Below are positions 1-5,650 of a stretch of 45,535 nt of DNA, piece after piece. Numbering within the stretch: the first letter of the stretch is position 1; every line of letters begins with the position of its first letter. The stretch lies in the IMG/VR virus record IMGVR_UViG_3300045005_000110; one strand, written 5' to 3'. The position numbers were made by a program, and so were the translations under genes. The DNA is from a virus. Under the pieces are notes generated by a model. The model ran no database searches, was not told where the DNA came from, and saw only the letters and a program-made list of their open reading frames with translations.

Positions 1-560
1 TTGAATGGAAACCGTCTTTTAGTTTATTCAGAGTTTTTTCTAATTTGTTACTGCCGTATCCAAACCAACTTTTTTTAGACAGATCGGCAATTGGGCCATT
101 CAGTGCGTCAATCACAGGTGGAATAGCAGGTAGCATTTCTGCCAACCCACTCATAATCTTACCGGCGGTTTGAACATCTCGTGGATTTAGTTTAGTGCCA
201 AAAGCACCGGCACCGATACCAAATATCGGATCAATAATACCGTAAGAAATGAAATTCAAAATTGCCGCAAAACTTGAATGGAAACCGTCTTTTAGTTTAT
301 TCAGAGTTTTTTCTAATTTGTTACTGCCGTATCCAAACCAACTTTTTTTAGACAGATCGGCAATTGGGCCATTCAGTGCGTCAATCACAGGTGGAATAGC
401 GGGTAGCATATCAGCCAGCCCCTTCATCACGTTCGCGGCCGTCTGAATGTCGCGAGGATTGAGTTTAACACCTGCGGCACCGGGACCAATGCCAAAGATT
501 GGATCAATAATGCCGTAAGAAATAAAACTCAAGATTGCTGCAAAGTTCTTACTGAAGAAA
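1..560 (-). repeat. Two ~270-bp tandem repeat units (first truncated by the window edge) encoding the C-terminal repeat of the giant protein
   Basis: Positions 1–~130 are identical to 270–~400. The remainder of each unit encodes the same peptide but has diverged at synonymous sites. Copy 1 is visibly AT-richer. Confidence 0.85.
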
Positions 561-3500: not shown

Positions 3501-5650
3501 TTAGTCAACTTGGCCGACAGTTCGCGGAACGCCGCAGGGTCTTTCAACGCCTTCTCGATCTCAGAAGAGTCGATACTCAGTTCCGACTTGCCGGACGCCT
3601 TCAGCGACTCGTTGACACCCTTCAAAGCTTCGTTGATGGCGTCACGGGCTGCACCGGCGTTGCTGCCCCACGACTTACCCATCGCCTTCAGGTCGCCCTC
3701 GAAGTCCTTCCTTCTTTCTCCGAACTTGGACAACGCGGCGTTCATGTCCTTAGCGCCCTTAGCCGCCTCGTCCAAACTCGTCAACATCTCGAAGCTCTTG
3801 CTCGTTTTGAGACGACGCTCCTCTTCCTTCAACGCCAGTTTTTCTTCCAGCGTGAGGTTGCCTTGTTGTTTCTTGCGGATGTCATCGAGGCGGTCGGCCA
3901 GGGTTTTGCTGGACTCTTTCAACGCCTTCAGCGACTGCTGCAACTCGCCGAGTTCAAGACCGTATGCGGCCTTCAACTGGAGGTTGAGCTTCATCTTGGC
4001 TTCGTCGGACAGGTTGTCGATGGCCTCAACGGATTGGACGCCGAATTTCTTCAGCATCATCTCCATGCCCTTCTCCATGTCCTTGATGCCGCCCTTCGTC
4101 TTGAGGATCGTACCCTTCATCAAGTCGCCCGTGCGACCGACCTGGGCGGCGGCTTGGAACAGGAAGGCGCGAGTCTCGCTCGACGCTTCGCGGAACAAGT
4201 TGTTGGTCGATGCCATCGCCTTGATCAGCGGTTCGATCTGCTTAGTCACACCCATCTTTTGGGCGTTGGCGGCGATCTCCATGACGTTCTTGGCTGCGCT
4301 CGCACTCAACATGGCGGCGTTGCGGAGAACCTCAACGAAGTTGTCACCCTGTTTGACGGCGTTGGCGAGTTCCTTGCCCGTCAAGCCTGTGTAGCGTGCG
4401 ATGTCCCGCATGCCCCGCCCCATTTCGGCGATCTGCATGGTGGACATGTTGTACTGGTTGTTCCACTTGATGAACTCTTCGGTCAGTTCGCCGGCCTCAA
4501 GACCCAACTGCTTCTCGGTGTTCAACTGGGCCGTCGTAACCGCCATCGCGATCTTCTGGTCCTTGATGCCCGACTTCAGAGCCTTCAGGTAAGACGCCTG
4601 GAACTCGGAGCGGCCGACGCCGGTTGTCTTGGCGGTCTTGCCGATGTCCGTCATCGCGTCTTGAAGACCTCGTGTCTCGGCTGTCAGACCTTGCGTCTCG
4701 TTGATCGCGGCCCGCGTCTCTTTGATGAACTTGACTTCTTCGTGTACGGCTTCCTTGAACATGGACTTGAAGGTGCCGAGGAACGTATCCTTCAAGAAAC
4801 TCATGTCCTTCGAGAAGACGAAAAACGCCTCTTGAAGATCGGCGACGTGGCCGATGAAACCTTCAAGTGCGTCATCCGTCGCCATCATGTCTTCGCGGTG
4901 CTGACGATAAGCCCTTCGACCCCGCGTGAGCGAGTCGTTCATGCCCTCGTTTGACGTGGTCGCGGCATTCATGGCCGCTTCAAATGCTCTGGCACGGTCC
5001 ATCGGACTCGGCCCGCCACCGCCCCCGCCACCACCCCCGCCACCACCGCCACCCGATGGTGCCGCACTCGGAGCCGCCCTTTCTGTCGGCGAAGGAGCTA
5101 CGGATGGGGTCTTGTCAACGACCGAAGAACCCGGACAGCATGCTTCGATGGCGGCTTTCAAGCCGCCTAGCAGTCTGTGTGTTTCTTGGTCGTGTGTGAA
5201 GAACTTGCCCGGCGTTGACGCCATATCTTTCATTGCACGAATGTCGGACGCCTGACCAGCAAACGCGGTTTTGAATTCGCCCTTGACGTAGTCTAAAACG
5301 GCCTGAGTGTTCGTTTGAATCACGCCCAAGGAACCGCTTACGTCGCCGCCGAGAGTTGGGGTTCCCGTTCCCTTGCCGATGTTGTCGATCTTCTGGCCGA
5401 GTTCGTTCATCACCCGCTTCAGGCCCGATATTTCTTCAGCGAAACTCGAACTCATTTCGTTCAAAGCTGCTTCGATTGACTTGCACTGGGACGACGTTTT
5501 CTGGCTGATGACCGACGCGACTTCCCCGACAACTGACTTCATACCGGCGGTGATCGAACTTTTCAGTTCGTCCCACTGGTTTGGGTCGATGTTCATGTTT
5601 ACGTTGCGGCCGATTGCATCGACTACGACGTGAAGTTGCGGATCAGCCAT
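1..5650 (-). CDS. Giant tape-measure-like repeat protein (>1880 aa). Start at 5650; the C-terminus runs off the window start.
   Basis: Manual minus-strand translation from ATG at 5650 (preceded by an AGAGGA SD) is open to position 1. It is absent from the ORF track because it has no stop in the window. It contains a G14 tract, a long K/E/A/M-rich helical region, five ~84-aa hydrophobic tandem repeats (LTPGRMFxIAATWLILAVAVGAIGYAL…FALVSLPLIAFA…) and C-terminal ~90-aa repeats (LPAIPPVIDALNGPIADLSKKSWFGYGSNKLEKTLNKLKDGFHSSFAAILNFISYGIIDPIFGIG). All + strand ORFs over 249–5633 are low-complexity shadows. Confidence 0.6.
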   Translation of the reverse strand, partial: MADPQLHVVVDAIGRNVNMNIDPNQWDELKSSITAGMKSVVGEVASVISQKTSSQCKSIEAALNEMSSSFAEEISGLKRVMNELGQKIDNIGKGTGTPTLGGDVSGSLGVIQTNTQAVLDYVKGEFKTAFAGQASDIRAMKDMASTPGKFFTHDQETHRLLGGLKAAIEACCPGSSVVDKTPSVAPSPTERAAPSAAPSGGGGGGGGGGGGGGPSPMDRARAFEAAMNAATTSNEGMNDSLTRGRRAYRQHREDMMATDDALEGFIGHVADLQEAFFVFSKDMSFLKDTFLGTFKSMFKEAVHEEVKFIKETRAAINETQGLTAETRGLQDAMTDIGKTAKTTGVGRSEFQASYLKALKSGIKDQKIAMAVTTAQLNTEKQLGLEAGELTEEFIKWNNQYNMSTMQIAEMGRGMRDIARYTGLTGKELANAVKQGDNFVEVLRNAAMLSASAAKNVMEIAANAQKMGVTKQIEPLIKAMASTNNLFREASSETRAFLFQAAAQVGRTGDLMKGTILKTKGGIKDMEKGMEMMLKKFGVQSVEAIDNLSDEAKMKLNLQLKAAYGLELGELQQSLKALKESSKTLADRLDDIRKKQQGNLTLEEKLALKEEERRLKTSKSFEMLTSLDEAAKGAKDMNAALSKFGERRKDFEGDLKAMGKSWGSNAGAARDAINEALKGVNESLKASGKSELSIDSSEIEKALKDPAAFRELSAKLTKAEQEAATAQKAALDPMSKIEQGVRELNDTMRNFTSSFLSSYMNLTGVLGVLAPLLGMMAAQQALSIARWRADKDFGVMGVLKKGLGKIFGYGGKKKGGAGDVAPGAAAGSGVDAGKGVEALAKDGLGGVSHVEDDTVAGLLRQLLHCLCSPKANGIENDEFKNIGKKNKANAAQIEQGAVAKAEKKAGGAAAKEKSKASAGGDDTKSILDKIEKLKGDGPRIAKAAGIIAALTIGIVLLGAVLIKLANMLFSKLKLDIKTVIETAAIIGVIMGAAGLIGTALYYAKPHLDKLADAEKDINAMVKNMWKGAKALAKLSGPLLVFAAELAIFGKIVLGALGLSPGRLLLIAGTWIALALGIAGIAEAIVRSGPMYAQLPVATKMMHTLHKELWAAVGAFGLVTLPLIAFAAIMALFGYVVIDKFGLTPGRMFAIAATWLILAVAVGAIGYALTASLPGWATMGAGLSAVWSIYPMLWSAVAAFALVSLPLIAFAGLLALFGYVVIDKFGLSPGRMFAIAATWLILAVAVGAIGYALAASLPGWVTMGAGLSVIWALMPVLLNAVAAFALVSLPIIAFAALLAGFGYIVIDQLGLTPGRMFQIAATWLILAVAVGAIGYALTASLPGWVTMGVGLGVIWSLLPLLFMAVAAFALVSLPIVAFAAILAAFGTIVIDELGLTPSRMFDIAATWLVLAIGIGAISYALIEATPGWSMLGIAYPFLLYAYGLMWLGVGAFALVSLPILALAEIIAEFGDTLDELGLTPERMKQIGETFVTLSETIGELCMSMLGATAKLAVLGVLSIFSVLMMSLAMLGVGAFAVLAIPILALGSAISNFGRTIIDDMGLTPERMQAIQDSFTSLTDTIRSLSWKMISATASLSLLGVLLIFSTLASTFIWMGALAFLVMMGPFQFLAYMLSKFAESVDIEGVKKAGEICEAIAKTISTIPPVIKSLTDELLPLMEPRWWGLVGPSKMEKALKVTTGFFSKNFAAILSFISYGIIDPIFGIGPGAAGVKLNPRDIQTAANVMKGLADMLPAIPPVIDALNGPIADLSKKSWFGYGSNKLEKTLNKLKDGFHSSFAAILNFISYGIIDPIFGIGAGAFGTKLNPRDVQTAGKIMSGLAEMLPAIPPVIDALNGPIADLSKKSWFGYGSNKLEKTLNKLKDGFHS
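1290..2470 (-). repeat. In-frame tandem repeats of 252 bp (84 aa), ~4 near-identical plus diverged flanking copies, inside the giant CDS
   Basis: The segment 'ccgatggc(t/c)ccgaccgcgacggcgaggatcaacca(c/t)gtcgctgcaat' recurs at ~1656, ~1908 and ~2160, a period of 252 bp. The protein repeat is LTPGRMFAIAATWLILAVAVGAIGYALTASLPGWxTMGAGLS. Confidence 0.85.

Follow-up and report, generated by a model that had tools for sequence, protein, structure and literature searches.

The IMG/VR virus record IMGVR_UViG_3300045005_000110, a stretch of viral DNA of 45,535 nucleotides (nt) that was analyzed as a whole and is referred to here as the window, carries at one end a single very long open reading frame (ORF) on the minus strand, which was delineated by six-frame translation of positions 1-6000. 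This ORF occupies positions 2..5650, starts with an ATG at position 5650 that has a GAGGA ribosome-binding site ahead of it and lies 10 base pairs (bp) past the stop of the preceding gene, and stays open to position 2, giving 1883 amino acids (aa) without reaching a stop. An earlier interpretation of this DNA from its letters and open reading frames (the sequence-only reading) had described a tape-measure-like protein of more than 1880 aa that runs off the edge and lacks the 3' part of its gene; the ORF was found as described, and the missing part is the 3' part, with the C-terminus lying beyond the window edge. The rest of the gene was also sought in the source contig, with no exact gene record and no exact 40-mer match in viral, metagenome or genome collections. 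The complete protein is probably about 2,770 aa long, with about 880 aa more past the window edge, because two homologues, P0001 (2767 aa) and P0002 (2707 aa), align to it throughout and continue for about 880-890 residues. The ORF very probably (about 0.85) represents the first two thirds, counted from the N-terminus, of the tail tape measure protein of a huge uncultivated phage whose baseplate is of the contractile type.

The protein is built of successive parts, which are listed with their coordinates in Table 1: an N-terminal domain, a Pro/Ser/Gly-rich linker, a charged helical region, a spacer, and two arrays of tandem repeats. Several homologues (P0002, P0033, P0007/8 and P0041) align to the window protein from near residue 1. 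The run of 14 glycines (G14) reported by the sequence-only reading is present at aa 200-213 (nt 5012-5053) within the linker, and it is not conserved, the longest glycine run of the homologues being 2-11 residues. The helical region rich in Lys, Glu, Ala and Met that had been noticed earlier was likewise recovered. A Kyte-Doolittle scan (19 residues at a time, mean of at least 1.6) detected 24 hydrophobic segments between aa 759 and 1812. Pfam matches of the window protein to Baculo_PEP_C and RelB were below their cut-offs and were dismissed, the former, in the N-terminal domain, as noise. In addition, the guanine-cytosine content is 45% at window positions 1-1000, where the second repeat array lies, versus 56-60% across the rest of the giant gene, which probably reflects amino-acid composition.

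The two arrays were characterized by Tandem Repeats Finder, which reported a 252-bp period at positions 1436-2314 (score 964) and a 273-bp period (score 843) corresponding to a 91-aa unit, and by motif and hidden Markov model (HMM) analysis. Seven hydrophobic 84-aa units stand in exact register at aa 1056-1642, each with an E-value (E) of about 1e-36, and a degenerate eighth unit lies just upstream of them at aa ~976-1055; the five tandem repeats counted by the sequence-only reading were therefore too few. Its 252-bp period was correct, whereas the description of the units as near-identical was not: the best three (units 2-4) share 77-80% DNA identity and 76-82% protein identity, and the protein identity of the outer units drops to 19-50%. 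The second array, in which at least two repeats of about 90 aa had been noticed, comprises 2.6 copies of the 91-aa unit with 87% DNA identity. Exact DNA stretches of 75 bp (units 2 and 3), 28 bp (units 3 and 4), 26 bp (units 2 and 4) and 127 bp (91-aa units) are shared and are still long enough for unequal recombination. Third codon positions hold most of the differences among units 2-4 (28-34, compared with 7-10 for second positions), from which the units are concluded to be old, translated copies under selection. No charged residue occurs between positions 7 and 81 of units 2-4. The 91-aa repeat was detected in 62 family members, with 2-9 copies in each. The two repeat types may have a common origin, although the observations are no more than suggestive: hhalign aligned 14 columns only (FAAI..F.Y.IID, E 0.037), this shared motif stands before the array junction, cross-HMM matches between the two repeats within the window protein are weak, and in P0001 the 91-aa model matches (3e-9) the spot equivalent to the seventh hydrophobic unit of the window protein. 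An AlphaFold2 (AF2) model of three hydrophobic units, predicted from an alignment of in-register repeat triplets, was helical and too uncertain for conclusions about tertiary structure (predicted local distance difference test, pLDDT, 45.6; predicted template modelling score, pTM, 0.26).

A large family of homologues is defined by the helical core of the protein. All of the 54 homologues (1.3-3.3 thousand aa) recovered from a large protein collection, on contigs of up to 586 kb, contain this core at 27-53% identity, and all of them are unnamed or called 'hypothetical'. When the alignment of the family core (A1) was used in a second word-index search, four fragments and no more were gained, and an exhaustive HMM search with A1 identified 448 representative clusters (50% identity), 388 of them at E ≤1e-30, with most lengths at about 1,000-4,000 aa and a maximum of 5363 aa among the matches listed. 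In IMG/VR, 63 viral contigs of up to 532 kb carry the family. The sole relative among deposited phage genomes is the unannotated 595-kb metagenomic phage LR756511.1, and all family members found come from metagenomes. No match was obtained when 25 kb of the window was compared with cultured and deposited phages by nucleotide search, and a search for relatives in a genome contig collection found nothing. The extreme C-terminal ~110 residues are conserved family-wide, and it is the middle, between the core and this end, that varies.

The gene order next to the giant gene points to a tail module. On the 586-kb contig carrying P0002 (locus L001), seven genes, five of them baseplate genes, follow directly in this order: a 177-aa gene without a match, a 106-aa gene matching phrog_7145 (baseplate wedge, E 4e-16), a 480-aa gene without a match, a 720-aa gene with the Phage_base_V OB domain of the spike (32.5 bits, above the Pfam cut-off of 23.8), a 144-aa GPW_gp25 gene (67.9 bits, cut-off 27.2), a 520-aa gp6/J-like gene (phrog_219, E 2e-28), and a 1053-aa Tail_P2_I gene (24.6 bits, cut-off 20.6). 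The same downstream order, with sizes of 177, 108, ~500 and ~720 aa for the first four genes of the set, recurs in loci L002 to L004 and on the contig of P0053, the most distant of the members, and the relatives that show it include P0018, P0009 and LR756511.1. The 63 IMG/VR loci were also searched with the neighbour proteins, and in all 60 where the ORF ends inside the locus, the baseplate set comes directly after it in the same order, as far as the locus reaches. The succession of tape measure, hub, spike, gp25, gp6/J and I is that of Mu-like and other contractile-tail modules. The window itself is syntenic with L001 gene by gene between 5.6 and 15.4 kb (39-81% protein identity), and this synteny of about 10 kb suggests that its own giant gene is also followed by baseplate genes. 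The sequence-only reading had allowed that neighbouring tail genes might be absent, or that profile matches might lead to a non-structural family; tail genes adjoin the giant gene in every relative examined, and no match to a non-structural family was found in Pfam, PHROGs or NCBIfam.

Within this fixed gene frame, the length of the ORF ranges from 1011 to 4154 aa among the 60 IMG/VR loci, a four-fold variation of the kind expected of a ruler. Length is correlated with the number of hydrophobic segments (Spearman 0.81, n=176 members longer than 900 aa): the median is 2 segments at 900-1300 aa, as in ordinary tape measure proteins, and 23-26 above 3,000 aa, with a maximum of 36. Repeat numbers, which the earlier reading had proposed to compare across related genomes, were counted with HMMs built on the window's own units and differ between relatives. 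The window protein has 8 hydrophobic units and at least 3 91-aa units, the latter being cut by the edge; the corresponding numbers are 7 and 4 in P0001, 5 and 5 in P0002, and 8 and 6 in P0115. L027 and L028, IMG/VR proteins of separate samples, differ solely by one extra 88-aa unit in the amphipathic array, a difference that could be an assembly collapse, and two others (L033 and L034) are 90% identical and differ by 161 aa in the hydrophobic array. The overall pattern fits gain and loss of whole units, and, together with the in-frame length variation, it is consistent with a repeat copy number that sets tail length. At the upper end of the range, P0100 (5363 aa) has 36 hydrophobic segments with both conserved ends present, and the ORF of L008 (IMGVR_UViG_3300049215_000771, 532 kb) runs for over 4,000 codons and reaches the end of the locus without a stop.

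Similarity to known tape measure proteins was detected through distant members of the family and through the predicted structure of the core. The window protein gave nothing significant in Pfam, PHROGs, NCBIfam or Protein Data Bank (PDB) sequences; PF10145 (PhageMin_Tail) and TIGR01760 were unmatched at E ≤1 in Pfam and E ≤0.1 in NCBIfam, and the PHROG tape-measure families at E ≤0.1. Similarly, P0001, P0002, P0009 and P0053 had no Pfam match, and searches of PDB sequences with the window protein, P0002 and the core profile returned noise from the poly-Gly linker or nothing. Two short and distant members, P0156 and P0177, which belong to the family by core-profile E-values of 1e-104 and 2e-94, align across the core with phrog_167 ('tail length tape measure protein'; E ~2e-6). 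Two further members (P0167 and P0186) match other tape-measure PHROGs outside the core (E 1e-8 to 1e-11), and 3 of 31 core sequences show weak matches to phrog_167 or phrog_28 (E 6e-4 to 2e-3). The core model predicted by AF2 from A1 is a confident one and all helical, with about 25 short helices (pLDDT 80.5, pTM 0.77). In a Foldseek comparison with the predicted viral structures of BFVD, this model had 12 matches at E ≤1e-3, and 30 of the top 50 matches were named: 27 as tape measure or minor tail proteins, 3 as uncharacterised, and none with another function. Among solved structures, generic helical repeats only were matched.

The giant ORF thus shows what is characteristic of tape measure proteins: a position upstream of the baseplate genes (in relatives), length variation with conserved ends, and a helical and hydrophobic composition. 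Gene position, the PHROG matches of shorter members, the core model and the relation between length and hydrophobic segments all support the functional assignment of the sequence-only reading. Several points weigh against it. The window protein itself matches no tape-measure model in Pfam, PHROGs or NCBIfam and no PDB sequence, and its links to such proteins, either transitive or structural, have modest statistics, with Foldseek E-values of 2e-4 to 1e-2 and template modelling scores (TM-scores) of 0.2-0.4. Low TM-scores are expected for flexible helical proteins, and an all-helical query may favour tape measure proteins, which are abundant and all-helical themselves; the Foldseek result is therefore best taken as supporting, not decisive. 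The baseplate genes lie outside the window, and their adjacency in this genome is deduced from synteny; in addition, Pfam and PHROG searches identified no sheath or tube gene next to the giant gene. The 24 hydrophobic segments greatly exceed what was seen in the controls, since the same test gave 0 for lambda gpH and 0 for phage G gp183. Finally, tape measure proteins scale at about 1.5 Å per residue, so that tails of 0.6-0.8 µm, longer than any known to us, would be needed for members of 4,000-5,400 aa if these are extended.

If the protein acts as a tape measure in the manner of lambda gpH and T4 gp29, the tail tube under assembly would hold several copies. The conserved C-terminus would be anchored at the baseplate hub, the chain would run through the growing tube, and polymerisation would stop at its N-terminal end. 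The length of the protein would thereby be translated into the length of the tail, with the number of ~84-91-aa modules setting it; an extended hydrophobic unit would account for about 12.6 nm, and about 2,770 residues at ~1.5 Å each for a tail of about 0.4 µm. At infection, by the same analogy, the protein may exit from the tube before the DNA does, and its hydrophobic helices may enter the cell membrane and form or line a conduit for the DNA. The distinctive feature of the family is that the variable, length-giving part consists of tandem hydrophobic or amphipathic helical modules of ~84-91 aa, which are gained or lost as whole units.

The strongest competing explanation, although an improbable one, is a virion-borne ejection or channel protein of the baseplate module that would be injected as a conduit and would not serve as a ruler, tail length being set by another protein. 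Such a role would be in keeping with the extreme hydrophobicity (24 segments against none in lambda gpH and phage G gp183), with lengths of up to 5363 aa that imply implausibly long tails, and with the failure to match any curated tape-measure model. However, no other long helical ORF is found in the conserved module, the gene sits at the tape-measure position, and the PHROG and Foldseek links lead specifically to tape measure proteins; moreover, known tape measure proteins combine both roles, which makes this no clean alternative.

It is more improbable still that the gene encodes a non-structural polytopic membrane protein of the infected cell, for membrane remodelling or superinfection exclusion, that stands beside baseplate genes by chance. 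The many hydrophobic helices do resemble an integral membrane protein, and AF2 gave no confident fold for three units, but the link to the baseplate module holds without exception in 60 of 60 loci, the length varies 4-5-fold while the ends are conserved, and a soluble helical core of ~470 aa resembles tape measure proteins, all of which argues otherwise. In units 2-4, furthermore, charged residues are confined to the unit junctions, and three spans per unit would place successive junctions on opposite sides of the membrane, which would be unusual for similar tandem units. An assembly artefact, by short-read collapse or expansion of repeats or as a chimeric ORF, is the least likely explanation of all. 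Exact repeat stretches of 75-127 bp are hard for short-read assemblers, and the single-unit difference between L027 and L028 could be such a collapse, but this architecture is shared by more than 60 contigs from independent assemblies and by 448 protein clusters. Most units, moreover, have diverged to 19-82% identity with differences mainly at third positions, so that they can be resolved and are under selection, and the frame is open throughout.

Beyond the assignment as a tape measure protein, it is possible, though we hold this only tentatively, that the proteins form an unrecognised tape-measure family, restricted to uncultivated huge phages and lengthened by amplification of hydrophobic modules, with either tails of 0.4 to about 0.8 µm or modules that are folded back. 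In the first case, such tails would be longer than any described. In the second, the modules would fold back in the tube and the rule of ~1.5 Å per residue would fail; their actual task might then be to bring in a very large assembly, with up to 36 helices per chain and several chains per tail, that inserts into the membrane and builds the conduit for the DNA.

The kind of protein is a known one, but the family is large, absent from curated libraries and unusual in its architecture, and the assignment would give a function to a family that no source names and that comprises 448 clusters and 63 IMG/VR contigs. In a lineage of aquatic jumbo phages described in 2025, the tape measure gene reportedly could not be identified (PMC12619734). 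The present findings should be helpful for the annotation of huge-phage genomes, where they could fill a known gap in tape measure assignment, and protein length might serve as a sequence-only predictor of tail length in uncultivated huge phages, from ~150 nm to 0.8 µm. An array of hydrophobic modules would also be an unusual solution for a ruler, one that bears on how a DNA channel is formed in the host membrane.

Table 1. Parts of the giant protein and other genes of the window and of related loci; positions refer to the window unless a locus is named.
Feature	Residues	Position	Strand	Remark
N-terminal domain	1-180	5111..5650	(-)	kept only in closer relatives
Pro/Ser/Gly-rich linker	181-217	5000..5110	(-)	holds G14
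Charged helical region rich in Lys/Glu/Ala/Met	~240-760			includes family core
Family-defining helical core	~290-760 (~470 aa)	3371..4783	(-)	alignment A1, AF2 model
Spacer	761-971	2738..3370	(-)	Lys/Gly/Ala-rich low-complexity stretch and hydrophobic segments 759-777 and 943-961
Array of eight 84-aa hydrophobic repeats	~972-1642	725..2737	(-)	seven in exact register at nt 725-2485
Array of 91-aa amphipathic repeats	1649-1883	2..706	(-)	2.6 copies, cut by window edge
164-aa gene		5661..6155	(-)	10 bp upstream of giant gene, 80% identical to L001 gene
Three upstream genes (163, 491 and 163 aa)		10650..13354	(-)	conserved across lineages
Major-vault-protein-like gene		6894-9256	(+)	split into ORFs 6894-7220 and 7217-9256 in different frames
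798-aa ORF		7187-9583	(-)	shadow ORF antisense to vault-like gene
320-aa ORF		~9.7-10.6 kb		partly matches an L001 gene
CCA-adding tRNA nucleotidyltransferase		13877-15427	(+)	PolyA_pol head domain, 4e-20
HAD_SAK_1 protein		15872-16549	(+)	adjoins CCA-adding enzyme
AAA-family ATPase		26027-27214	(+)	8e-12
ADP-ribosylglycohydrolase		39307-40437	(-)	PF03747, E 1.9e-73
HNH endonuclease gene in L001		L001 3567-4526	(+)	phrog_559, 7e-27
Pmp3-family gene in relatives		L002 9257-9460; L003 9058-9243; P0053 contig 2387-2596		

Almost all IMG/VR loci have a homologue of the ~165-aa gene upstream of the giant one, mostly directly adjacent; family matches occur only in its homologues and are weak ones to phrog_429 ('DNA end protector'). 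At this place, just ahead of a tape measure gene, tail assembly chaperone genes would be expected, often with a programmed frameshift. The genes of 163, 491 and 163 aa lie in the same order as their counterparts in L001 and L002 (34-81% identity) and have no Pfam match and no PHROG match of any weight. The 491-aa protein was considered together with a 163-aa protein as a candidate for sheath and tube; as neither Pfam nor PHROGs gave a match in four lineages and the N-terminus of the 491-aa protein is rich in Pro, Gly and Asp, no call was made. In several lineages a Pmp3-family membrane protein of 61-69 aa is encoded two genes upstream of the tape measure gene, and no homologue was detectable in the window. 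In T4, the small membrane protein Imm binds the tape measure protein and blocks superinfection (bioRxiv 10.64898/2026.03.06.709160); an Imm-like role for the Pmp3-family protein is conceivable by analogy, as pure speculation. The HNH endonuclease gene of L001 is unmatched in the window, where the 320-aa ORF stands at the corresponding place and matches a neighbouring L001 gene only in part; the two phages probably differ here by a mobile insertion.

The vault-like gene has an 881-aa homologue in L001, in which MVP_shoulder (2.5e-18) and Vault_3 are above the Pfam cut-offs. The split copy of the window has about 75 residues fewer; it may be a pseudogene, or the split may stem from a sequencing error or mark a recoding site. 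A vault-shoulder protein within a phage tail-gene neighbourhood is unusual. The 798-aa ORF on the opposite strand, the second longest in that part of the window, was rejected as a shadow ORF; it has no family matches, and the homology to L001 lies on the plus strand. The CCA-adding enzyme and the HAD_SAK_1 protein, the latter with a 'Swiss Army Knife' RNA-repair HAD domain, form an RNA-repair pair; in L002 and L003, too, the pair is conserved next to the tail genes. No tRNA genes were found in the window. The strong ADP-ribosylglycohydrolase match is possibly a phage counter-defence or regulatory enzyme. Pfam gave no match for most of the remaining large ORFs at 16-45 kb.

Giant tape measure proteins of very large phages are already known, since gp183 ('tapemeasure', JN638751) of the Bacillus megaphage G, a phage of ~0.5 Mb and to our knowledge the only cultivated megaphage, has 2893 aa and is thus similar in size to the window protein. 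The two proteins differ in other respects: hhalign detected no similarity between gp183 and the family core (probability 0.8%), and gp183 has 0 hydrophobic segments by the test that found 24 in the window protein and up to 36 in the family. The gp183 gene comes after frameshifted chaperone genes, and its product has been described as a tape measure to which a tail lysin is attached (PMC12484599); its sequence looks as if it carries C-terminal cell-wall hydrolase domains, whereas no lysin or hydrolase domain was matched in the window protein, whose C-terminus is beyond the edge, or in the full-length homologues. The TP901-type core (PF10145/TIGR01760), phrog_167 and phrog_28 are helical tape-measure cores, as is the one described here; these models are unmatched by the window protein and its close relatives, and distant members reach phrog_167. 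The lambda protein gpH, which is shorter (853 aa) and part of a non-contractile tail, determines tail length by its own length according to the work of Katsura and Hendrix (1984), cited in PMC12619734; it has 0 hydrophobic segments by the same test and no long tandem modules.

A parallel in layout is offered by T4 gp29, which lies in the tube lumen of a contractile tail and provides a DNA conduit at the inner membrane (bioRxiv 10.64898/2026.03.06.709160). According to the same study, gp29 has, besides a coiled coil at its N-terminus, a linker rich in proline, a single predicted membrane segment, a bundle domain of amphipathic helices and, at the C-terminus, a loop that sits at the hub or distal tube, and predicted membrane helices are common among tape measure proteins. 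The N-terminal domain, the Pro/Ser/Gly linker, the helical bundle-like core and the hydrophobic helices of the window protein are comparable to these parts, and a conserved C-terminal end is seen in its relatives. The bundle domain of gp29 comes after the membrane segment, whereas the core of the window protein comes before the hydrophobic array. There is also a difference of scale: gp29 has 590 aa and a single membrane segment, and the hydrophobic part of the window protein is amplified many-fold.

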